Assembly (NCBI GenBank): GCA_020635235.1
Contig: JACKAF010000001.1
Span: 92,743-156,742 of the forward strand
Length of the DNA: 64,000 nt
Reading direction: 5' to 3'
Origin: Pseudobdellovibrionaceae bacterium
GTDB lineage: Bacteria; Bdellovibrionota; FAC87; UBA2466; JACKAF01
Shown here: piece after piece, positions 6,262-55,198 of the stretch
How positions within the stretch are numbered: the first letter of the stretch is position 1
How the letters are laid out: every line of letters starts with the position of its first letter
Notes under the pieces: model-generated
Told to the model about the DNA's origin: nothing
The model's input: only the letters and a program-made list of their open reading frames with translations
The model's database searches: none
Position numbers and translations under genes: made by a program

Positions 6262-7134
6262 GTGCGTCCGCTTGCATTCATTTTGCTTATTTTTTGCACC
6301 GCCTCGGCGATGGCGGCGCGCGTTATCGAAATCGGGCCCGACTACGAATGGCTATACGTGTCACATGACGGGGAAAAGCGTTGGGCACGGGGGCAAAACG
6401 CCTGCGTAGGTCCAGAGGCAAACCCTATCGCGTGCGGCCGCATCGTGGACGTGCTTGCGCACTACGCCAAACTTGAAATCGACACGCACGTTTCGCAGCC
6501 CGCGACGCCCCAAATCAACGAGGGGAAGGAAGGGACCTTCATAAGCGTTCGCTTCCGACGGGTTCCTATTCGTGTGGGGGCATTCGTGAAAGAAAAGAAC
6601 TGGAAACGCGCTCCAGCCTCCGCGCCCGACGAGCCCATCCAGAGCGTGGCTGAAGCCAAACCCGATCTCAACCACTACGAACTTCTGAGGGACGACATCT
6701 ACCCGCTTAACGCAGCAACCATTGGGCTCAATTTGGTTTTCCCAGTATTTCATTTTCAGCAAGCGCTTACCCAACACTTTGCCTTCGGTTTGGGAGTTAC
6801 TCACATGACGCTACCAACAGAAGCGGGACAGTTCATCGGGCCTGGGGCGATGTTCACCTTTAATTGGTATTCCGCGGCACCTTTTACGGGTTGGTATGTA
6901 GAGCTTGGAGTCGCGGCCTATGATCTTCGCGCCCAGCAGGCTTCGATCTCGGAGGCAATCGTCGGCCTTTCAGGAATGCTCTACTTCGGCCACAGATGGC
7001 GCTGGAGTTGGGGTCTTAACTTCGGAATTGGTGTCGGAGCACAAGGCTTCTACACGACCCCACAAAGTTTGGCGTCGCTCACCATCCCGACCGTACTCCC
7101 TTCCTTCTTAATGGATATCGGGCTTAGTTTTTAG
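6262..7134 (+). CDS. Paralogue of the preceding OM beta-barrel protein
   Basis: Signal peptide, same C-x9-CG domain, HRWRWSWGLNFGIGVG, C-terminal ...DIGLSF. Confidence 0.55.
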   Translation: MRPLAFILLIFCTASAMAARVIEIGPDYEWLYVSHDGEKRWARGQNACVGPEANPIACGRIVDVLAHYAKLEIDTHVSQPATPQINEGKEGTFISVRFRRVPIRVGAFVKEKNWKRAPASAPDEPIQSVAEAKPDLNHYELLRDDIYPLNAATIGLNLVFPVFHFQQALTQHFAFGLGVTHMTLPTEAGQFIGPGAMFTFNWYSAAPFTGWYVELGVAAYDLRAQQASISEAIVGLSGMLYFGHRWRWSWGLNFGIGVGAQGFYTTPQSLASLTIPTVLPSFLMDIGLSF

Positions 7135-7980
7135 CTATTCTTTGGCCTTCAGATCTGGAAAATCTTGGTAGTCAGCAGCGTCTAACGGTGCTCCCGCTCG
7201 GCCAATCGGGTAGTCGTCGGCTTCTTCCAAACCGATTCGCTTACCAAAACGAGTAACGCGATCCTTGATTCTACCAAGCAAGAGCTCAACGTTTTCTTCA
7301 TCACTAAGCTTCGGATCTTCGGATCCCAAGTCGCGTTTGAAGTTTGTATTTTTGGCGAAGTTAGTGAGCGCCACTTTCAGCAGCGGAATTTGTAGAAAAT
7401 TAGGTTTGAAAATGGGTGCCGCACCTGTTCTAGGAGGCTGCGGACTAGGACTGTTCGAAGCTTGCGGCAATTCTTGCGGACTGGCCTTTGCTTCGCGGCT
7501 TTTCTCTGTTTTATCGGAACGCTCAGCTCCTTCTTGTTTTTTTTCGTCCAGCAGTTTCTCTAGTGAGTTTCCCAAGTTCTGCTTCGCATTGGCGCTTACC
7601 AACTCGATCGCAAGAATGGTTGCCTGACGCATGTCTTTTTCGAGAGCCAAAATCTCTTCTTTAATCTTGCCGTCTTTTTCTTTTTTAGCTTTTTCAGACC
7701 AATCGTAAAAATCAGGGTAATCTTTGGCGACCTGTTCAAACGGCCTAAAGTTGTCTTTAAGAAAAGCTAGATCTTCTTTTTTGAGAAGCTCTGATTTGCC
7801 CGCTACATAGTCTGCAGAAGACGCCACATCTGGGTCGCAGCTCGTCCCACTACCGTTCGCACAAGCATCTGCAAGGGCGGCTCTCAGTGCTCGCTCCGAA
7901 TGGGATGCCTGTTCCGCCGCTACTATGTAGTACGACGAAACCAAAATTAGAAGAACTGCAAACCTTCTGTATACGTTCAT
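7135..7980 (-). CDS. Hypothetical secreted Lys/Glu-rich protein
   Basis: ATG 7980 with GGAG RBS, signal-peptide-like N-terminus; the ORF-track TTG start overlaps a sigma54 promoter. Confidence 0.65.
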   Translation of the reverse strand: MNVYRRFAVLLILVSSYYIVAAEQASHSERALRAALADACANGSGTSCDPDVASSADYVAGKSELLKKEDLAFLKDNFRPFEQVAKDYPDFYDWSEKAKKEKDGKIKEEILALEKDMRQATILAIELVSANAKQNLGNSLEKLLDEKKQEGAERSDKTEKSREAKASPQELPQASNSPSPQPPRTGAAPIFKPNFLQIPLLKVALTNFAKNTNFKRDLGSEDPKLSDEENVELLLGRIKDRVTRFGKRIGLEEADDYPIGRAGAPLDAADYQDFPDLKAKE

Positions 7981-8017
7981 GGCTACTCCAATCACAAGTC
8001 GGCCTTGATTTCTGAGG

Positions 8018-8033
8018 TGCAAACTAAGAGCCA
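8018..8033 (-). promoter_or_regulatory. sigma54-like promoter TGGCTCTTAGTTTGCA
   Basis: GG-N10-GC with TGGC and TTGCA; predicted TSS ~8007, RBS and ATG 7980 downstream. Confidence 0.55.
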
Positions 8034-8095
8034 AATTGTCGAGGGTAAAAATGGGCGGAATACTAGAGGTAAACGTCTAGGCGGCGAAGCTCCAG

Positions 8096-8482
8096 CTACT
8101 TTTTGGTGGCTTCGACGTAGCGTAGGCGGACTTCGGTAAGTAGGCTAGTGACAAGCTCCGCTTCCTCGTTGCTCAGATTTCCACGGGTCTTGTCTACAAG
8201 CATCGCCAAAATGTCGATATTTTGTTTGGCGAGATTTACATCCTTGTGAGTCTTTTTTGTAATCGGGTCGGGTGAGAGGCCCAGATTAATCAATGCACCG
8301 GTCGCGAGCGAAAATACAAACGTCGAAAAGTCTACCTCTCCGGGGTGGGAGGGCGACGAGTCAGATTTGCCCGAATCTTTCATCACAAATCCATCGCCTT
8401 CCGACTCTTTGGTCTCCGCTTTGGAGTCCTTGGCGGAAAATCGGCGATCAATAACCTTGATTTCCTCGTCCTTTGAATTCAT
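8096..8482 (-). CDS. DUF1844 domain protein
   Basis: FSTFVFSLA...LG...P......D...AKQNIDIL.ML..KTRGNL..EE..L...L.E.R..YV pattern; TGATG overlap with upstream gene. Confidence 0.8.
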   Translation of the reverse strand: MNSKDEEIKVIDRRFSAKDSKAETKESEGDGFVMKDSGKSDSSPSHPGEVDFSTFVFSLATGALINLGLSPDPITKKTHKDVNLAKQNIDILAMLVDKTRGNLSNEEAELVTSLLTEVRLRYVEATKK

Positions 8483-9165
8483 CAAACTTTTCCTTCGGCA
8501 ACGTCGGCCTTAACCTCAGGGGCGGATGCAGGCTTGGGGGCCTCTTTTTTGGGTTCCGCCGGCTTCTTCGAGGCCGCTTTTGCTTTTGCCTGAGCGATAA
8601 GATTCTTCAACTTGTCTTTTCGTACCACCAGTTCGGAGTAATCAAGCGAACTGACTGAAGGCGCATCCTGATCTACGGGCGCTAGCTTATTCAAACCAGT
8701 AACCTTAGTGGGTTTGGAAGCTAGAAGTTTTCTAAACGCTCCAATGTAAAAAGTTTTGTGCAAACAAAGTTCATCGGTCGTTCTCAAACTGACCGTTATG
8801 AGAGCTTCGCGGGACTTGATAGAGCCATCAGAAAGAAATTCTTTAAACTCGTCCGGGAGGATGACCGGCTGCCAAAACGGACCCTTGGCAGGCGGATCCA
8901 TTGTCACTGTGAACCGCATTTCTTTCTTAACTGCGCTCGGGGAGAGAACGTTGACCGTCAAGCGGTACGCCTCAATGGCGTAAACGGCGGGATCCCAACT
9001 GAACCAGTAAGCCAACTGGCCATTGTCTCCGGTTCCCGAAACCCCAAATTTCGGCCGCGCCGCGCGGGCCCGTACACTCAAGACCCCAAGTACCAGAGCA
9101 TAAAACCCAACCAGCACGGTCGCCGTGCCTACTACCGCCCCAAAAAGGGTCAACAAGACTGACAT
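8482..9165 (-). CDS. Hypothetical membrane-anchored protein
   Basis: N-terminal TM helix, Lys/Pro/Ala-rich tail, GGAG RBS, coupled to DUF1844. Confidence 0.65.
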   Translation of the reverse strand: MSVLLTLFGAVVGTATVLVGFYALVLGVLSVRARAARPKFGVSGTGDNGQLAYWFSWDPAVYAIEAYRLTVNVLSPSAVKKEMRFTVTMDPPAKGPFWQPVILPDEFKEFLSDGSIKSREALITVSLRTTDELCLHKTFYIGAFRKLLASKPTKVTGLNKLAPVDQDAPSVSSLDYSELVVRKDKLKNLIAQAKAKAASKKPAEPKKEAPKPASAPEVKADVAEGKV

Positions 9166-9303
9166 TTTTTAGTCTCCACGCCTCAGTAAAAACGGGCTTC
9201 TTTTTACCATATTCCCACCCCACCGCAAATTTCCTTTCGGTATCTCAAAGCTTTACCCTGGCGCGCCATGAAAGGCCTTTGGGGCTGAGCTAAACTAGTT
9301 TGG

Positions 9304-9972
9304 ATGAACACATGGAAAGCTCTCGTTTTGGGTCTCTGCAGCGCGTTTTTTTCCCTTCAACTATGGGGTTTCACCACCGAAACCACGGCCATCATGGACT
9401 CGCCGCTCAACTTCGGCCTAGATATCCAATATTCAGCAATCGACTATAGAAATTATGCGTTTACTGACACTGACACGAATACTCAGCTCGGCCACGCGGT
9501 ACACATCGCCTTTGAGTGGCTCCCCCTAAAAACTATCGGAAAGCTGGGAATAGGACTTGGAACCGCCGGGGTTTTTGGGTTGAGCAATGTAGAGCTTAGC
9601 GGGAACCGGTACGCGTCCCTCAATGTCATCCCGCTTGAGGGGTTTCTGAGCTATAGGGCCGAGTACGTTCACCAGCAGGTCGTGGTCCCCTATATTAAGG
9701 TAGGCGCGAGTGTGGTGTGGGCGAGGCAAACATCAGAAACAGGTGCGGCCGTACCAGGAACACGCACCTACTATGGACGCGATCTTTCGCTGGGACTAGA
9801 ATTTTGCCTGAGTCGAATCGACCCGGAAGCCAGCCGAAAGTTGGACCGCAGCGTGGGAATCAACTCGACTTATCTTGTGGTGGAGTACACCCAAAGCCGA
9901 TCCGTCGGTCCCTCGGGATCCCCAAACCTCTCGCACGATGCCTACCGGGCCGGTCTGCGTTTCGAATTGTAG
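9304..9972 (+). CDS. Outer-membrane beta-barrel protein (MXAN_2562-like)
   Basis: Signal peptide, YRAEY..QQVVVPY.K.G, LD..VGINSTYL..EY, C-terminal GLRFEL. Confidence 0.65.
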   Translation: MNTWKALVLGLCSAFFSLQLWGFTTETTAIMDSPLNFGLDIQYSAIDYRNYAFTDTDTNTQLGHAVHIAFEWLPLKTIGKLGIGLGTAGVFGLSNVELSGNRYASLNVIPLEGFLSYRAEYVHQQVVVPYIKVGASVVWARQTSETGAAVPGTRTYYGRDLSLGLEFCLSRIDPEASRKLDRSVGINSTYLVVEYTQSRSVGPSGSPNLSHDAYRAGLRFEL

Positions 9973-10007
9973 TTTCGGGCGCCAAGAGTTATTTTGAGTG
10001 GCCTTTT

Positions 10008-10094
10008 GGAGAGGTGGCTGAGTGGTTGAAAGCGGCGGTCTTGAAAACCGTTGTCCCCGCAAGGGGACCGGGGGTTCGAATCCCTCCCTCTCCG
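10008..10094 (+). tRNA. tRNA-Ser (TGA), long variable arm, CCA not encoded
   Basis: GGAGAGG acceptor paired with CCTCTCC, D-loop AGTGG, anticodon loop CTTGAAA, GTTCGAATC. Confidence 0.95.
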
Positions 10095-10125
10095 GTGTTT
10101 AAGGTGATTCGTTCTCTTTTAAGAA

Positions 10126-10836
10126 ATGGAAATTCAAGAAGCGACAATCCCTACCCCGAACGGCGAGCTCAAATACCGCCTCACTCAAGGCCAGTCCCAT
10201 CAAACCCTGATCTTTATGCATGGCCTGCCTGGACCTAGCCTCCACATCCGAGCGGTCGTAGATCGCCTGGTGGAGCGCCTAGGCTGGAACGGCTTGAGTT
10301 TTCATTACCGCGGTTGCTGGGGCTCCACGGGGGAGTATGCGCTGACGAAACAGCACGAAGACTACGTGGCGGTTTGTGGATGGCTAAAAGAGGTGAGAAA
10401 AATTCCCGCCCCCGCGCAAATGACTTTGGGCTATAGCATGGGCGGATACAATCTATTAAGAGCTCTCTCCGAAGGGCGTGTTGCCGGAAAAGCGATTGCT
10501 CTCGCCCCACTCACGCGCATTGAAGGCTGTGGTATTGACGACGCTTTTTTTGAAGAAGCCAGCGGACTGCTGGAGATGCCCCCTGTAAAACTCAAGTCCC
10601 AATATGCTTTATTGCCGGCCATCGATTTTGCGAAGGTGGATAAGGAGATATCTCCGCTACTCAGCATTCTTACCGCCGCAGAGGATGAATTATTTTCCGA
10701 AGATTATTACCAACAGCAGTTTCATGAAAAAGCGCGCTCCAAGTGGACGTCGGTCCCTCGCGCAAATCACCTCTTTGAGGGCGTCGAAAAGGAACTAGAG
10801 GAGGGCCTTTTTCGACTCCTGTCCACAACCAACTGA
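10126..10836 (+). CDS. Alpha/beta hydrolase
   Basis: MHGLPG, GYSMGG nucleophile elbow, late Asp and His (ANHLF). Confidence 0.8.
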   Translation: MEIQEATIPTPNGELKYRLTQGQSHQTLIFMHGLPGPSLHIRAVVDRLVERLGWNGLSFHYRGCWGSTGEYALTKQHEDYVAVCGWLKEVRKIPAPAQMTLGYSMGGYNLLRALSEGRVAGKAIALAPLTRIEGCGIDDAFFEEASGLLEMPPVKLKSQYALLPAIDFAKVDKEISPLLSILTAAEDELFSEDYYQQQFHEKARSKWTSVPRANHLFEGVEKELEEGLFRLLSTTN

Positions 10837-10951
10837 CTGTGTTACCGCCCACACCCCTCCGCACTAAAGAACATCAGGTTGCATAGCGGACACGAGCAAA
10901 AATTGCGGTACAATAATAAAGTTAACTGGCCGACGCTTAAGGCCCCCGATC

Positions 10952-11734
10952 TTGATAAAGAAGGACGGCGTGCCCTCTATTACTTGGCACATTCAGGTAT
11001 ACAAGGACGAAGAGTACTTGCCTGAGTGCCTTTCAGCTCTGCGCCGTTCGTACCCAGACTCACGTATCTTTCTCATCTCGGACGGAGATCCAAACCCAAA
11101 AATAGAACAAATTGCGAATCAGTTTGGAAGTGAGTGCTTCTACGGGGAACGCCTCTTTGGCATCGAGCACGGCGGCGAAATTCTTCATCGATTACTTGAT
11201 TACTATCTAAATCGACCCTCAGATTACCTTATAAAGATAGACGGAGACACGCTCGTAAATCGACGCATCCTTTACCTACCAATTACCAAAAGGCCGCTAC
11301 TGATGGGGACTCGCCAAGTAGCGGGAGACGGAGAAGAGGATCTGGTGTCGGTCCAGGGGGGGTGTATCATCCTCAATCACGCCGCGGCTTCTCTCATGCA
11401 CGAGTCCAAATTGTTTCTCGATCCTCGGCTCAAACCGCCGGATATTGCTTGGGCACGTAAGGGGACACATCAGGAAGAAAGAGCAATGCTTGGCCTAACC
11501 AGCCACGACTGGACTATTGGCTGGGTTTGCAAGGAACTAAATATCGAGATCTGGGATCACCCTGAGATTGCCTCTTATTGGAAAGAGAAAGCTTTCTATT
11601 CTCTAAGCGACGTGGCAAGGAACTACCGAATGCTGATAAGGCGTTTTTGGCCCGCGGTAACCCATCCAAACAAAATCGCTGCTCCCGTAGACTCCAGTCA
11701 AGAGGGAGCCGAAAGGCAACAAAAGTCAGGCTAA
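10952..11734 (+). CDS. Putative GT-A fold glycosyltransferase
   Basis: LISDGD, IKIDGD (DxD), SVQGGC motifs; TTG start uncertain. Confidence 0.55.
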   Translation: MIKKDGVPSITWHIQVYKDEEYLPECLSALRRSYPDSRIFLISDGDPNPKIEQIANQFGSECFYGERLFGIEHGGEILHRLLDYYLNRPSDYLIKIDGDTLVNRRILYLPITKRPLLMGTRQVAGDGEEDLVSVQGGCIILNHAAASLMHESKLFLDPRLKPPDIAWARKGTHQEERAMLGLTSHDWTIGWVCKELNIEIWDHPEIASYWKEKAFYSLSDVARNYRMLIRRFWPAVTHPNKIAAPVDSSQEGAERQQKSG

Positions 11735-12570
11735 GCCGTCTGAAATTGCGAACCTTCTTCAAGGCTATTAATTCGAACAAAATCGCCGTTTACGTATTTT
11801 TCCAGCTCACGTTTCCCAATTAACCCTGAGTTTGCAACGAGCTTCCCTTTTCTAACATTGTGAACCGATAGCAAGTGGTTTGCCGCGTTCATTTCTTCCC
11901 AATCTAATGATTGGTGATCTATCGAACTAGGTCGAGGGTTCGGTATGCATCTATTGAAACGACACTCGAAAGGTCCGCGCCACCGTAGCGTATTCCAAAA
12001 ATGCAGTAATCGAGAAATTCTTTGGGGCACTATCTTCGCCTTGTACTTGGTAGCAACTCTGCGCACAAAATCGTGATCCTGGTAGCCGTAGGGTTGAAAT
12101 TGCTCGTCGTATCCCCCGACGCCGTAGAAGTGCGCTCTAAGGGTGGAGATGCGGCCTGTTGAGCCATCACCGGGACCGGCCTGCTGATGATAAACGATGG
12201 GCCCCTTGTACGAAGCAAACGTCTCAAGCACATGCCTGCCTCCGCGTCGGCCTGTAAAATTGTCGCCATCCAGGTTGGTGAGGATGTCGCCGCTTCCAAG
12301 CACGGCAGCGGTGTTCTTTGCGAACGACGTGTCGTATGGATCGAGTGCGGGCGCACGGTACAGACTCAAAAAGCCGCTTTCCAAGTGTCGGGAAAAGTTT
12401 TTTATTATCCAATCTACCGTTCCGTCCGTACTCGCAAAATCCACCAAAACAAAATTCACGGTTCCCCGATCGGCGAAGTTATCGGTCAGATTCTGCGGAA
12501 GGGTTTTGGATAATTGCCAAAAGCGATTCCTGATATGTATGCAGAAGGTTAAAGTAAGCTTGGATTTCAC
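11731..12570 (-). CDS. GT2/GT7-like glycosyltransferase
   Basis: LVDFASTD, NLDGD, GGYDEQF..YGYQDHDF motifs. Confidence 0.75.
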   Translation of the reverse strand: MKSKLTLTFCIHIRNRFWQLSKTLPQNLTDNFADRGTVNFVLVDFASTDGTVDWIIKNFSRHLESGFLSLYRAPALDPYDTSFAKNTAAVLGSGDILTNLDGDNFTGRRGGRHVLETFASYKGPIVYHQQAGPGDGSTGRISTLRAHFYGVGGYDEQFQPYGYQDHDFVRRVATKYKAKIVPQRISRLLHFWNTLRWRGPFECRFNRCIPNPRPSSIDHQSLDWEEMNAANHLLSVHNVRKGKLVANSGLIGKRELEKYVNGDFVRINSLEEGSQFQTA

Positions 12571-12671
12571 TCAGATCAAATTGTAGCAAACAAGGTTCCT
12601 TTTGACACCAGGGACAGGAAAAAAGCACACATTGACAAGCCTCTACGCATCGCGCTGCGTGCCTAGCTCCT

Positions 12672-12687
12672 TGGATCTCATCTTGCA
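12672..12687 (+). promoter_or_regulatory. Weak sigma54-like site TGGATCTCATCTTGCA
   Basis: GG-N10-GC with perfect TTGCA but poor -24 element; 50 nt upstream of the serine hydrolase ATG. Confidence 0.3.
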
Positions 12688-12736
12688 GTTGCATTGGGAG
12701 GACTTATTCTAGTCCTGATTTTCCACGGATAGGAAC

Positions 12737-13960
12737 ATGGGACGGGGCCAAAATCCAATCAAATACCTACTCCTTTTCGCCCTCGTACTGTGTTCGGGGC
12801 TACTTGCCGAAGATCTCCGCATTGACCAGATCGTTGCCGCCCACATGACCGTTAGCAAAATTCCCGGACTCGGTTTGGGGATCATTCACGGAAACAAGAT
12901 TGTTTACTTGAAAGGCTACGGCAAAGAACACATTGCTTTGCGCCGAGATGTCGATCCGAGCGTCACAAGGTTTCGCTGGGCTTCTCTTTCTAAAACCGTG
13001 ACGGGAATTCTTGCCGTCAAAGCGCATCTAAGAGGCTATCTCGACCTCGACGCAGACATCCGCACGTACTACCCGCAATACGTCCTTCCCTCTACTTATA
13101 TGAACCATGGTGTGGCCGTCGATATGCCCACCGGAACCCACGTGACACTCCGACAACTTTTGAGCCATAGCGCGGGAATGCAGCACTATTCAAATGGTAA
13201 AAGTTCACCCACCCCGCCCTACCAACTCACCAACAACGAGTTGGCCAACACCGGTATGGAATGGGCGCTCAAATACTGGGTATCTAATCCGCTGATATCA
13301 TTTCCGGGAGACTCCTACCACTATTCCACTCCCAGTTTTAATTTGGCAGGGGTGGTACTCGAAAAAGCCCTAGGCGAAAATTTTGCGAATCTCACGGAGC
13401 ATTGGATAGCGAGTCCCTCAAAAATCACGACACTTCGCCCGGACACCTTGTGGAACATGGCTCCTCACCGCGCCGAGGGTTATATCGCCGTCGGTACGAA
13501 TTTTGTGCTCGACGCAGACAACGATGTTTCTTGGAAACTCGCGGGCGGCGGCTTCATTTCTACTACTGAAGATCTCAGCCGTTACGCCTTGGCCGTTATG
13601 GGAGAGGATTTTTTGACCCCCGCAGAAAAGGCCCTCCTCTGGACAAAAACCAAACTAAACAACGGCAGCACCATTAGCTATGGCGTCGGCTGGAACGTCT
13701 ACACGACAGCGGACGGGCACAAGAAAGTATCTCACAGTGGTTCGCAAGAAAAGGCACGAGCCAGATTGAATTTGTATCCGGAGGAAGGGTTGGGATTTGC
13801 GATCCTGACCAACGCTGGGCACGACGTAAATCTTTCGGCTCTGGCGAAACAATTGGAAGATACTGTCCGAGAGCGTCTCGCTAACGGAGAGGGTCCAATC
13901 ATTGAAAAAGCCGAAGCTATTTCTTCTCTGGATATTCCTGAGTCTCTACCGAGAGGCTAA
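12737..13960 (+). CDS. Secreted serine hydrolase (class C beta-lactamase / PBP family)
   Basis: Signal peptide, SLSK (SxxK), YHYS, HSG motifs. Confidence 0.85.
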   Translation: MGRGQNPIKYLLLFALVLCSGLLAEDLRIDQIVAAHMTVSKIPGLGLGIIHGNKIVYLKGYGKEHIALRRDVDPSVTRFRWASLSKTVTGILAVKAHLRGYLDLDADIRTYYPQYVLPSTYMNHGVAVDMPTGTHVTLRQLLSHSAGMQHYSNGKSSPTPPYQLTNNELANTGMEWALKYWVSNPLISFPGDSYHYSTPSFNLAGVVLEKALGENFANLTEHWIASPSKITTLRPDTLWNMAPHRAEGYIAVGTNFVLDADNDVSWKLAGGGFISTTEDLSRYALAVMGEDFLTPAEKALLWTKTKLNNGSTISYGVGWNVYTTADGHKKVSHSGSQEKARARLNLYPEEGLGFAILTNAGHDVNLSALAKQLEDTVRERLANGEGPIIEKAEAISSLDIPESLPRG

Positions 13961-14930
13961 CTTCCTCGCTGTCCCGGAATACCACCATCTCGACTTTGGT
14001 ATTGAGCGCGGTACTTGAAATCCGTTGAACGAGCATGTTTACAGAAGTAACCGGCTTGCCTTGGTACTTCAAAACAACATCACCCTTCTTTAAGCCCGCT
14101 TTGCGGGCGGGGGTATCGCCATCCACCAGACTATCAACCTTGACGCCGTTATCGATATCCAATGCATCAAACTCTTCGTCGCTCAACTCTATAAATGCGG
14201 CACCCAAGTAGCCTCGGATTACTTTTCCGTTCTTGATGAGCTGATCGAGTACGAATCTCGCTTGCTCGCCAGAAATCGCAAAACCAAGTCCGATATTAGA
14301 TCCCGAATTGCTATGTATCGCGTTTACCACCCCGATGCACTTTCCATCTGTACAACATAGAAGAGGGCCGCCGCTATTTCCCGGATTGATCACAGCGTCC
14401 GTTTGCAGGTAGTTGACGTAGGGGTTTACTTTCAGGTAGCGGTCTTTGCCGCTTATGATTCCTCGGGAAACAGTCCCTTCAAAGCCATAAGGAACACCAA
14501 TCGCAAAAACTTCGGTTCCGACTCGGATATCTTCGGCGCTACTGATTTCAATCACGCGAATGCCGTCAACTGCCTCGGGCTTTACTTTGATGACCGCGAT
14601 GTCCGTGCGTTTGTCGCGAAAGATCTCAGAGCTCTCCACGCGTCTTTTCCCGGGAAACTTAATCCGAACTTTCGTCGCATTGCCAATGACGTGGATGTTT
14701 GTGAGTACGTAACCCTTCTTGTCGACCAGCAGTCCCGAACCGATCGAACTTTGCTTACCGGCTAAATCTCCGTCCAAGGGACTCACACGCGCCACCGAAC
14801 CGACTACGTCTTGGATGACATCGGCCAACTTTTTGTTTGCAGGTCCGGGCATTTCGTCCGCCAAAGCAAACGGCATGAAGAGTAGCCAGGTCGCCAAAGC
14901 CCAACCCATCCAACGCTTACGCAACATCAT
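13917..14930 (-). CDS. HtrA/Do-family serine protease (trypsin domain + one PDZ)
   Basis: Signal peptide, TNIHV, DIAV, GNSGG triad, C-terminal PDZ. Confidence 0.9.
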   Translation of the reverse strand: MMLRKRWMGWALATWLLFMPFALADEMPGPANKKLADVIQDVVGSVARVSPLDGDLAGKQSSIGSGLLVDKKGYVLTNIHVIGNATKVRIKFPGKRRVESSEIFRDKRTDIAVIKVKPEAVDGIRVIEISSAEDIRVGTEVFAIGVPYGFEGTVSRGIISGKDRYLKVNPYVNYLQTDAVINPGNSGGPLLCCTDGKCIGVVNAIHSNSGSNIGLGFAISGEQARFVLDQLIKNGKVIRGYLGAAFIELSDEEFDALDIDNGVKVDSLVDGDTPARKAGLKKGDVVLKYQGKPVTSVNMLVQRISSTALNTKVEMVVFRDSEEVSLSVETQEYPEKK

Positions 14931-46499: not shown

Positions 46500-46591
46500 G
46501 GAGAGGTGGCCGAGTGGCTGAAGGCGGCGGTTTGCTAAACCGCTGTAGGGTTAACCCCCTACCGGTGGTTCGAATCCACTCCTCTCCGCCA
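46500..46591 (+). tRNA. tRNA-Ser (GCT), CCA encoded
   Basis: GGAGAGG/CCTCTCC acceptor, GCGGT-TTGCTAA-ACCGC anticodon arm, long variable arm, GTTCGAATC. Confidence 0.96.
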
Positions 46592-46715
46592 GAGTTCATG
46601 GTGATTCGTTCCCTCCGCTTTCGCTTCGGGGTCGAATCCACTCCTCTCCGCCAGAGTTCATGGTGATTCGTTCCCTCCGCTTTCGCTTCGGGGTCGAATC
46701 CACTCCTCTCCGCCA
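46570..46715 (+). repeat. 62-bp tandem repeat: three copies of the last 22 nt of tRNA-Ser(GCT) separated by two identical 40-nt spacers
   Basis: TCGAATCCACTCCTCTCCGCCA at 46570, 46632, 46694; spacer GAGTTCATGGTGATTCGTTCCCTCCGCTTTCGCTTCGGGG. Confidence 0.95.
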
Positions 46716-46806
46716 GTTAGTTCCTTCCCTTTTTCGAATAACTTTGACATGCCACATCAAATGGTTTTAGTCGGTGTTCGTTGTTTCAATAAGGGAGACT
46801 CTACAA

Positions 46807-55090: not shown

Positions 55091-55164
55091 GCGCCCGTAG
55101 CTCAGCTGGATAGAGCGGCAGACTACGAATCTGTAGGTCGGAGGTTCGACTCCTTCCGGGCGCG
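55091..55164 (+). tRNA. tRNA-Arg (ACG), CCA not encoded
   Basis: GCGCCCG/CGGGCGC acceptor, GCAGA-CTACGAA-TCTGT anticodon arm, GGTTCGACT. Confidence 0.95.
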
Positions 55165-55198
55165 CTTTTCCCTCCTAAGCAGTGACAATTATTGCACC

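Follow-up and report, generated by a model that had tools for sequence, protein, structure and literature searches.

This study analyzed a 64-kb window of DNA (C1:92743-156742) from the genome of a Pseudobdellovibrionaceae bacterium (G000; 2.61-Mb assembly, 11 contigs, 79% complete). The genes for tRNA-Ser(TGA) and tRNA-Ser(GCT) in this window were called with the Rfam RF00005 covariance model and ARAGORN, and both are followed by the same 12-mer, GGTGATTCGTTC (Table 1). The two tRNAs have the T-loop TTCGAAT, and the 3' strands of their T-stems read CCCTC and CCACT, respectively. The window contains three exact copies of the 12-mer, all on the + strand, and no further copy was found in it with up to one mismatch. 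For comparison, every tRNA gene plus 400 nt downstream was examined in two other members of the family, namely G001 ('Bdellovibrionota bacterium BC2.86', a sister species in the same genus) and G002 (from another genus). Two of these three family genomes are metagenome-assembled genomes that are approximately 80% complete.

Table 1. Features at the two tRNA-Ser loci, in window positions
Feature	Position	Strand	Evidence or remark
tRNA-Ser(TGA)	10008..10094	+	no encoded CCA; Rfam RF00005 62.9 bits, ARAGORN
8-nt trailer GTGTTTAA	10095..10102	+	between discriminator base and arm
segment specific to G000	10101..10975	+	41 bp instead in G001; blastn/tblastx of window 7000-14000
solo arm (12-mer)	10103..10114	+	GGT + GATTCG + TTC
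orphan alpha/beta-hydrolase-fold ORF, 236 aa	10126..10836	+	Pfam PF12697, E = 4.7e-6 (weak support)
possible heavily decayed tail copy CGACAATCCCTACCCC, compared with tail CGAATCCCTCCCTC	10141..10158	+	inside ORF start
tRNA-Ser(GCT) with encoded CCA	46500..46591	+	Rfam 57.1 bits for 46500-46588, ARAGORN
unit 1 trailer GAGTTCAT	46592..46599	+	sequence
12-mer, arm of joint 1	46600..46611	+	exact match
joint 1 inner hairpin CCTCCGCTTTCGCTTCGGGG, type III	46612..46631	+	homologs behind Val(GAC), Met(CAT) and Lys(CTT) in G001
tail copy 1 TCGAATCCACTCCTCTCCGCCA	46632..46653	+	tRNA positions 55 to CCA; one T-loop T missing before it (GG-TCGA vs GGTTCGA)
unit 2, identical to unit 1	46654..46715	+	TRF
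unit 2 trailer	46654..46661	+	
unit 2 12-mer	46662..46673	+	
unit 2 hairpin	46674..46693	+	
tail copy 2	46694..46715	+	

The 12-mer behind tRNA-Ser(TGA) stands alone, and neither a GC hairpin nor an intact copy of the tRNA tail follows it in G000. The hydrolase-fold ORF starts 12 nt after this solo arm; it was not found in G001 or G002, and a word search in 5.8e9 proteins revealed no relatives. The stretch within the start of the ORF was matched to the tail by a global alignment with a remnant in G001, TCGAATCCCTTCCGC; it would represent a decayed tail copy, and the match may be due to chance.

The 12-mer behind tRNA-Ser(GCT) belongs to a repeated unit in which an 8-nt trailer precedes the 12-mer, and a hairpin of 20 nt and a tail of 22 nt come after it. 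TRF reported a 62-bp period at 46570-46716 with 2.4 copies and 100% identity, and a different flank, GTTAGTTCC, begins after the second unit. These units are young. The initial annotation had reported the shared 12-mer behind the two genes and a further copy in the second repeat spacer; its positions were exact, the recurrence is far beyond chance, and the further copy is the one in the second unit of the tandem repeat. Because the repeat is perfect, this third copy does not count as an independent event. The annotation had also placed the 12-mer exactly 8 nt after both genes. This distance holds for Ser(TGA) when counted from the discriminator base and for Ser(GCT) when counted from the CCA; tRNA-Ser(TGA) lacks an encoded CCA and tRNA-Ser(GCT) has one, so the two counts start from different reference points. 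In the common frame of the discriminator base, the offsets are 8 and 11 nt. A fixed 8-nt spacing was ruled out by the Rfam gene ends and by the range across all loci, where the arm begins 8-23 nt past the discriminator base.

The whole G000 genome contains five copies of GGTGATTCGTTC, whereas approximately 0.3 would be expected in 2.61 Mb on both strands. The initial annotation had suggested a test for enrichment of the 12-mer in tRNA trailers, and every one of the five copies lies directly 3' of either a tRNA gene or the copied end of one (one at Ser(TGA), two at Ser(GCT), and two at Arg(TCG)). They represent three independent loci and start 8-11 nt past the discriminator base of the gene or of the copied end. 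The two copies behind tRNA-Arg(TCG), on contig C5, again belong to a tandem unit, and this locus is independent of how the 12-mer pattern was picked. The reported absence of the 12-mer after tRNA-Arg therefore applies to Arg(ACG) at 55091-55165 but not to Arg(TCG) on the other contig.

We surveyed the 140 nt located 3' of each of the 37 tRNA genes in G000. The 12-mer proved to be part of a lineage-specific hairpin joint, of which it forms the 5' arm and which connects tandem copies of a tRNA's 3' end. The arrays behind the tRNA genes have a constant order: first the trailer, next an arm whose last bases are ...TCGTTC, then a short GC hairpin of variable length and GG, and lastly a same-sense copy of the tRNA 3' end. 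Such joints were found in G000 behind Ser(GCT), Ser(GGA), Asn(GTT), Ala(CGC), Gln(CTG), Lys(TTT), and Arg(TCG), with the hairpin being CCTTCGGGG, GCTTCGCGG, CCTCCGCTTTCGCTTCGGGG or TCGCGGGCGAGG; a decayed form lies behind Gly(GCC), and tail copies occur behind 8-9 tRNAs of this genome. Across the three family genomes, the construction stands behind about 20 tRNA species and is absent from most tRNAs. The units measure 44-75 bp and the spacers 20-50 bp, and no ORF was found within them. The core motif CGTTC[GC]CTTCG[GC]GG has eight copies in G000, all eight of which are in tRNA-trailer arrays.

The joints are constant in several details. Every tail copy begins at the TCGA or TCAA of the T-loop and runs to the 3' end, and every one lacks a single T (GG-TCGA where the tRNA has GGTTCGA). 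The joint is built as an imperfect inverted repeat, with GAYTCG-TT-CSC on the left mirrored by GSG-GT-CGARTC on the right; the TT/GT mismatch inside it is conserved, and C-G is swapped for G-C in the inner boxes (CSC/GSG) between hairpin types. The loop varies from 3 nt to about 45 nt and is longest in G002. Single units fold no better than shuffled sequences (z between -0.6 and -1.9, not exceptional), so the case for pairing rests on covariation. In older arrays, such as those behind Gly(CCC) in G001 and Gln(CTG) in G000, the tail copies have decayed by point changes and indels.

The composition of the arm links it to the adjacent tRNA. The 12-mer can be parsed as GGT + GATTCG + TTC, where GATTCG is the reverse complement of T-loop bases 56-61 (CGAATC). 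The general build is NGT, six bases, and TTC (GTC in G002), and the six bases are the exact reverse complement of positions 56-61 in the T-loop of the arm's own tRNA, perfectly Watson-Crick, in six classes. The arm GATTCG accompanies the T-loop TTCGAAT (Ser TGA, GCT, and GGA; Arg TCG; Val GAC; Gln TTG), GACTCG accompanies TTCGAGT (Lys TTT, Lys CTT, and Thr CGT), and GACTTG accompanies TTCAAGT (Met CAT and Leu TAG). The remaining classes have one member each, with GATTTG for TTCAAAT (Ser TGA of G002), GGTTCG for TTCGAAC (Gly CCC of G001), and GAATCG for TTCGATT (Leu CAG of G002). We tested this rule in the three family genomes, over the 330 nt downstream of each of their 124 tRNAs. The own-class arm was present within this distance in 15 of the 124 tRNAs, compared with 7 of 1488 tests with arms of the other classes (Fisher p = 9e-13). 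None of the 124 tRNAs had an arm on the opposite strand, and no G-U intermediate was seen among the six classes.

Two other descriptions of the arm were rejected. If the arm had been copied directly from the T-arm's 5' half, it would always read TTCG. At loops with G59 or A57 it reads CTCG, CTTG or TTTG, which makes it a complement of the T-loop rather than a copy. Pairing of the arm with the 3' strand of the T-stem beyond base 61 was weak and inconsistent, with the best ungapped match usually being 7/10.

The serine link proposed in the initial annotation was not borne out. The same 12-mer lies behind Arg(TCG), a one-base variant lies behind Thr(CGT), and matched variants lie behind approximately 20 tRNA species. 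Ser(TGA), Ser(GCT), and Arg(TCG) have the same 12-mer because they have a common T-arm, TTCGAATCC, to which the constant flanks are added, and not because of serine decoding; the apparent link to serine is a side effect of this common T-arm sequence. A recurrence of the 12-mer by chance can likewise be set aside. Three matches were obtained in 1 of 100 shuffles of the window with one mismatch allowed, which is the most that speaks for chance; the placement of all five exact genomic copies in tRNA trailers, together with the covariation of the arms with the T-loop classes, rules it out and leaves it a negligible probability.

The inner hairpins are common to different loci. A hairpin of approximately 19 nt, CCTMCGCTNCGCTTCGGGG, has its G000 locus at Ser(GCT) and recurs in G001 at Val(GAC), Met(CAT), and Lys(CTT); the arms beside it differ from locus to locus, each matched to the local T-loop. 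The hairpin types CCTTCGGGG, GCTTCGCGG, and TCGCRRGCGAGG are similarly common to unrelated tRNAs and between species. The same inner hairpins behind unrelated tRNAs suggest that joints moved between tRNA loci, and they speak against independent replication errors.

At the orthologous Ser(TGA) loci, the trailer reads GTGTTTTATTTTAA in G001 and GTTTTTTT in G002. In G002, the arm GGTGATTTG stands at the same 8-nt offset and is followed by a hairpin and two tail copies, and the T-loop reads TTCAAAT. Arm and T-loop have thus changed together across genera, a compensatory change at one orthologous locus. In G001, no arm is present and the decayed tail TCGAATCCCTTCCGC directly follows the trailer. 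The intact joint in G002 and the decayed tail in G001 indicate that the joint at this locus is old, the arm having been kept in G000 and the tail in G001. The Ser(TGA) joint of G000 is therefore a relic in which the arm was retained and the hairpin and the tail were lost or decayed. The break in synteny between G000 and G001 begins at the arm, where G000 has a specific segment of 875 bp.

The Ser(GCT) locus also differs between the sister species. In G001 (C10:83062-83559), a solo 12-mer lies 19 nt past the CCA without a tail copy, and the trailer resembles that of Ser(GGA) in G000. The 3' half of tRNA-Ser(GCT) in G001 is one base short and the T-stem is mismatched, with an Rfam score of 37.8 bits compared with 57.1 bits in G000. 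This gene may be a hybrid that arose from the collapse of an array through the T-loop, which would have swapped a decayed tail into the gene; the oddity may also be an assembly error.

We then considered how far the construction extends beyond the family. Among 40 relatives, the joint motif occurred only in G001. The bare 12-mer outside the genus, in the same 40 relatives, was far from any tRNA and apparently inside genes at all 10 inspected loci, and in 37 genomes outside the family the inspected loci showed no association with tRNAs. A scan of one genome from each of 185,579 species (116 loci inspected) found the joint motif adjacent to a tRNA only in G001 among the matches listed; at the other inspected loci among these matches, no tRNA lay near, save for one placed by chance. 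In metagenomes, a search for the T-loop, a gap, and the 12-mer gave eight matches, none from the family of G000. A phylum-wide scan for arm, gap, and tail start used a loose pattern that matches at approximately chance level, and none of the 30 non-family loci fetched was adjacent to a tRNA. Viral contigs and the phage and plasmid collections contained no joint in the context of a tail.

An enzyme or donor element was also sought, as the initial annotation had proposed by suggesting an integrase or a small element with the 12-mer at its end; neither was found. No integrase was detected at or near any array, and no larger element, phage, or plasmid carried the joint next to a tail. The single PF00589 match in G000 (C1:11270-11788) is Xer-sized and lies approximately 81 kb upstream of the window start on the same contig, and matches of similar size also occur in relatives without arrays. 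IS91 inserts next to GTTC/CTTG; no match to a Y2 (IS91-type) transposase was obtained, and control genomes were likewise without a match, so that this negative carries little weight. The search for Y1_Tnp or RAYT gave no match in the 79% of the G000 genome represented by the assembly. RAYT-like Y1 proteins were found in G001, G002, and a non-family genome, with the matches in G001 and G002 falling below the NCBIfam cut-off. One such gene in G001 (C12:17000-18500) encodes 268 aa (NF047646, 53 bits, below the cut-off) and ends approximately 40 bp from tRNA-Val(TAC) in convergent orientation, with its conserved domain approximately 335 bp away; it has paralogs in G001, G002, and G007.

Other repeats of tRNA ends were observed during these surveys. 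In G000, the last ~20 nt of tRNA-Tyr(GTA) (C6:226455-232362) recur 5.8 kb downstream as an ordinary att-like copy without arm or hairpin, and the interval contains few long ATG-started ORFs. Leu(TAA) is followed in G000 by three whole-T-arm tandem copies in 97-bp units (one copy in G001) and Val(CAC) by tandem copies with the whole T-arm and without arm or hairpin; these repeats, at C5:214733-215011 and C5:237671-237841, represent a second kind of tRNA-end repeat. G002 has a second small element of approximately 150-190 bp directly after the 3' ends of tRNAs (Ser CGA, Gln CTG, Trp, Cys, Leu TAG, and Met). Its left end is often AATAYCKGAGGGTC, CAGCACTCGCGA is internal, and after its right end, ..CGCTCGCGTAYMTT, comes a 12-15-nt copy of the tRNA end. 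Of the seven exact genomic copies of CAGCACTCGCGA in G002, four lie just 3' of tRNAs. In several genomes of a neighbouring family, AT-rich palindromic runs of words such as TTAAGGATTAA or CCTTAAGG stand behind tRNA-Ser(TGA); they have no tail copies and represent another type of trailer repeat.

The best explanation of the arrays, which we consider to have about an even chance of being correct, is a hairpin joint with a T-loop-matched arm that is spread by a T-loop-directed process at the DNA level. A recombination or insertion process aimed at the T-loop would have its crossover or junction directly 5' to the TCGA. When the DNA is single-stranded and folded, the arm would pair with the start of the tail and would rebuild the 6-bp T-loop duplex of the tRNA gene. 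Units would be gained, lost, and homogenised by recombination between the tRNA T-loop and the joints, and joints would pass between tRNA loci, with the arm ending up matched to each new T-loop. The gains and losses observed between species fall at joints (Ser(TGA) and Ser(GCT) of G001). We know of no transposition chemistry that accounts for the re-matching of the arm to a new T-loop; the complementarity of arm and tail could also be maintained by mismatch repair in an extruded hairpin, which would require neither a recombinase nor selection. Tentatively, the joint may also be read as a folded-strand recombination site, with the T-loop as attI, the tail units as minimal cassettes, and a host or unseen recombinase, and we regard this as rather unlikely. 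The joints would then belong to a new system of site-specific recombination: strand exchange would occur just 5' of TCGA, nearly any tRNA gene would serve as a landing pad, and DNA would occasionally be captured, such as the orphan hydrolase gene beside Ser(TGA).

A DNA-level, T-loop-directed process has three main rivals. One is an RNA-level element that would be co-transcribed with the tRNA: arm and hairpin would act within the precursor, and the tail copies would be a side effect. Such an element is in our judgment improbable; it could be a determinant of 3' processing or stability, a substitute for a terminator, or a T-arm decoy for T-loop-binding enzymes. No terminator-like or promoter-like site was found between either tRNA-Ser gene and the 12-mer, which makes co-transcription likely. 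The complementarity of arm and T-loop was held across genera by compensatory change; the TT/GT mismatch would be U-U/U-G on the sense strand, milder than A-A/A-C on the other strand; and the solo arm can pair, in a predicted fold, with the T-loop of its own tRNA in the precursor. Against these points, the arm lies anywhere between 8 and 23 nt from the tRNA end, the Ser(TGA) trailer of G001 has lost the motif, most tRNAs lack it, and no tRNA association was found in the 37 non-family genomes searched (10 loci inspected). Furthermore, G-U intermediates are lacking, the folding energies are ordinary, no terminator-like site was found in or downstream of the 12-mer and the joints, the hairpin lacks a trailing U-tract, and the identical 19-nt hairpins behind unrelated tRNAs would be left unaccounted for. 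The suggestion in the initial annotation of a trailer signal for 3' processing or antitermination finds no support and is improbable, given the variable spacing, the motif missing from the G001 Ser(TGA) trailer, and the lack of a tRNA link in the 37 genomes searched outside the family. Its other suggestion comes closer and is partly supported, namely that the 12-mer is left over from a small element located at the 3' ends of tRNAs: the 12-mer is the arm of a recurrent joint and stands solo at Ser(TGA), but it is not specific to tRNA-Ser and no integrase or donor element was found.

The arrays might also be an enzyme-free by-product, neither mobile nor functional, of template-switching at the quasi-palindromic T-arm followed by unequal crossing-over. 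The perfect tandem repetition of units, the decay of older tail copies by point changes and indels, the failure to find an enzyme or donor element, and the left half of the joint being an imperfect inverted copy of the right half all agree with this view. We nevertheless give it a low probability: independent errors would not yield the inner hairpins of 9-20 nt that many unrelated tRNAs of two species have in common, or the constant junction point, the missing T, and the conserved TT/GT mismatch, and the arrays are confined to one small family although T-arms are universal. Very unlikely, finally, are classical att scars, in which the tail copies would be attR remnants of deleted islands inserted in the T-loop and the 12-mer would be a leftover island end. 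Such scars would be in keeping with tail copies that begin in the T-loop, which is reportedly a known crossover sublocation of tRNA-targeting integrases, with the ordinary att-like copies of G000 at Tyr(GTA), Leu(TAA), and Val(CAC), and with the 875-bp strain-specific segment that abuts the Ser(TGA) arm. However, none of the arrays has an integrase at or near it, the spacers measure 20-50 bp, and the ordinary att-like copies of G000 lack arm and hairpin; one island family would need approximately 20 different tRNAs, with the arm matched to the local T-loop each time.

We found no description of hairpin-joined tRNA tail repeats in the literature, and they appear to be an undescribed phenomenon, in which one small family has many tRNA genes with copies of their own ends, joined by a hairpin that tracks the T-loop, and no integrase was found. 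This study adds the six-class rule relating arm and T-loop, the compensatory change between genera at Ser(TGA), the relics with a solo arm, the candidate hybrid tRNA of G001, and the hairpin types common to different loci. If the joint is a recombination site folded from a single strand, it would represent a new way of targeting tRNA genes and a simple system for the evolution of such sites; if it is only a by-product of replication, it would show a universal quasi-palindrome seeding minisatellites. The collapse of an array can swap a decayed tail into a working tRNA, as seemingly occurred at Ser(GCT) in G001.

tRNA genes are classic landing sites of mobile DNA, and the usual explanation for copied ends is an integrase carrying a copy of the tRNA end. 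Similar to the joints, the attL/attR sites of integrases have a same-sense copy of the tRNA 3' end that starts from the T-loop and lies downstream of an intact gene. However, the family arrays are without an integrase or a kb-sized island; their copies are tandem and approximately 40-75 bp apart, they possess a hairpin arm complementary to the T-loop, they lack one T, and they involve approximately 20 tRNA species. The distal repeats of Escherichia coli tyrT/tyrV are ~178-bp units containing the last 19 nt of tRNA-Tyr, and they are associated with the RtT RNA (Rfam RF00391). They likewise form tandem units behind a tRNA, repeat its 3' end, and are probably co-transcribed with it. The family units are three times shorter (62 bp at Ser(GCT)) and occur at many tRNAs rather than in one operon, and tyrT has no counterpart of the T-loop-complementary arm and hairpin. 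A cmscan with RF00391 at E <= 1 gave no match at the Ser(TGA) or Ser(GCT) locus.

REP/REPIN sequences, which are linked to RAYT (Y1 HUH) proteins, similarly place a short conserved tetranucleotide (here GTTC) beside a GC-rich extragenic hairpin, and RAYT-like genes occur in two of the three family genomes, with none found in G000. In contrast to the hundreds of dispersed REP copies, the joint has eight copies in G000, all linked to tRNAs, and REPs do not duplicate the ends of flanking genes. The joint hairpin differs from an intrinsic terminator in having no T-run. Parallels in form are offered by the hairpins of integron attC and CTX-phage attP, which are imperfect palindromes like the joint. 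The joint has outer boxes formed by arm and tail start, a conserved unpaired spacer (TT/GT), inner boxes that read CSC/GSG or CTCGC/GCGAG, and a loop that varies between 3 and 45 nt; as in those sites, the folded stem reproduces the target duplex and arrays form with one fixed junction point. The boxes of the joint are unrelated to the RYYYAAC/GTTRRRY of attC, and its junction is GG|TCGAR. An IntI-type integrase was not seen, no ORF lies in the 'cassettes', and the target is a tRNA T-loop; the resemblance is one of architecture only. Each known system compared shares some features with the joints and departs from them in at least one of the defining features tested.
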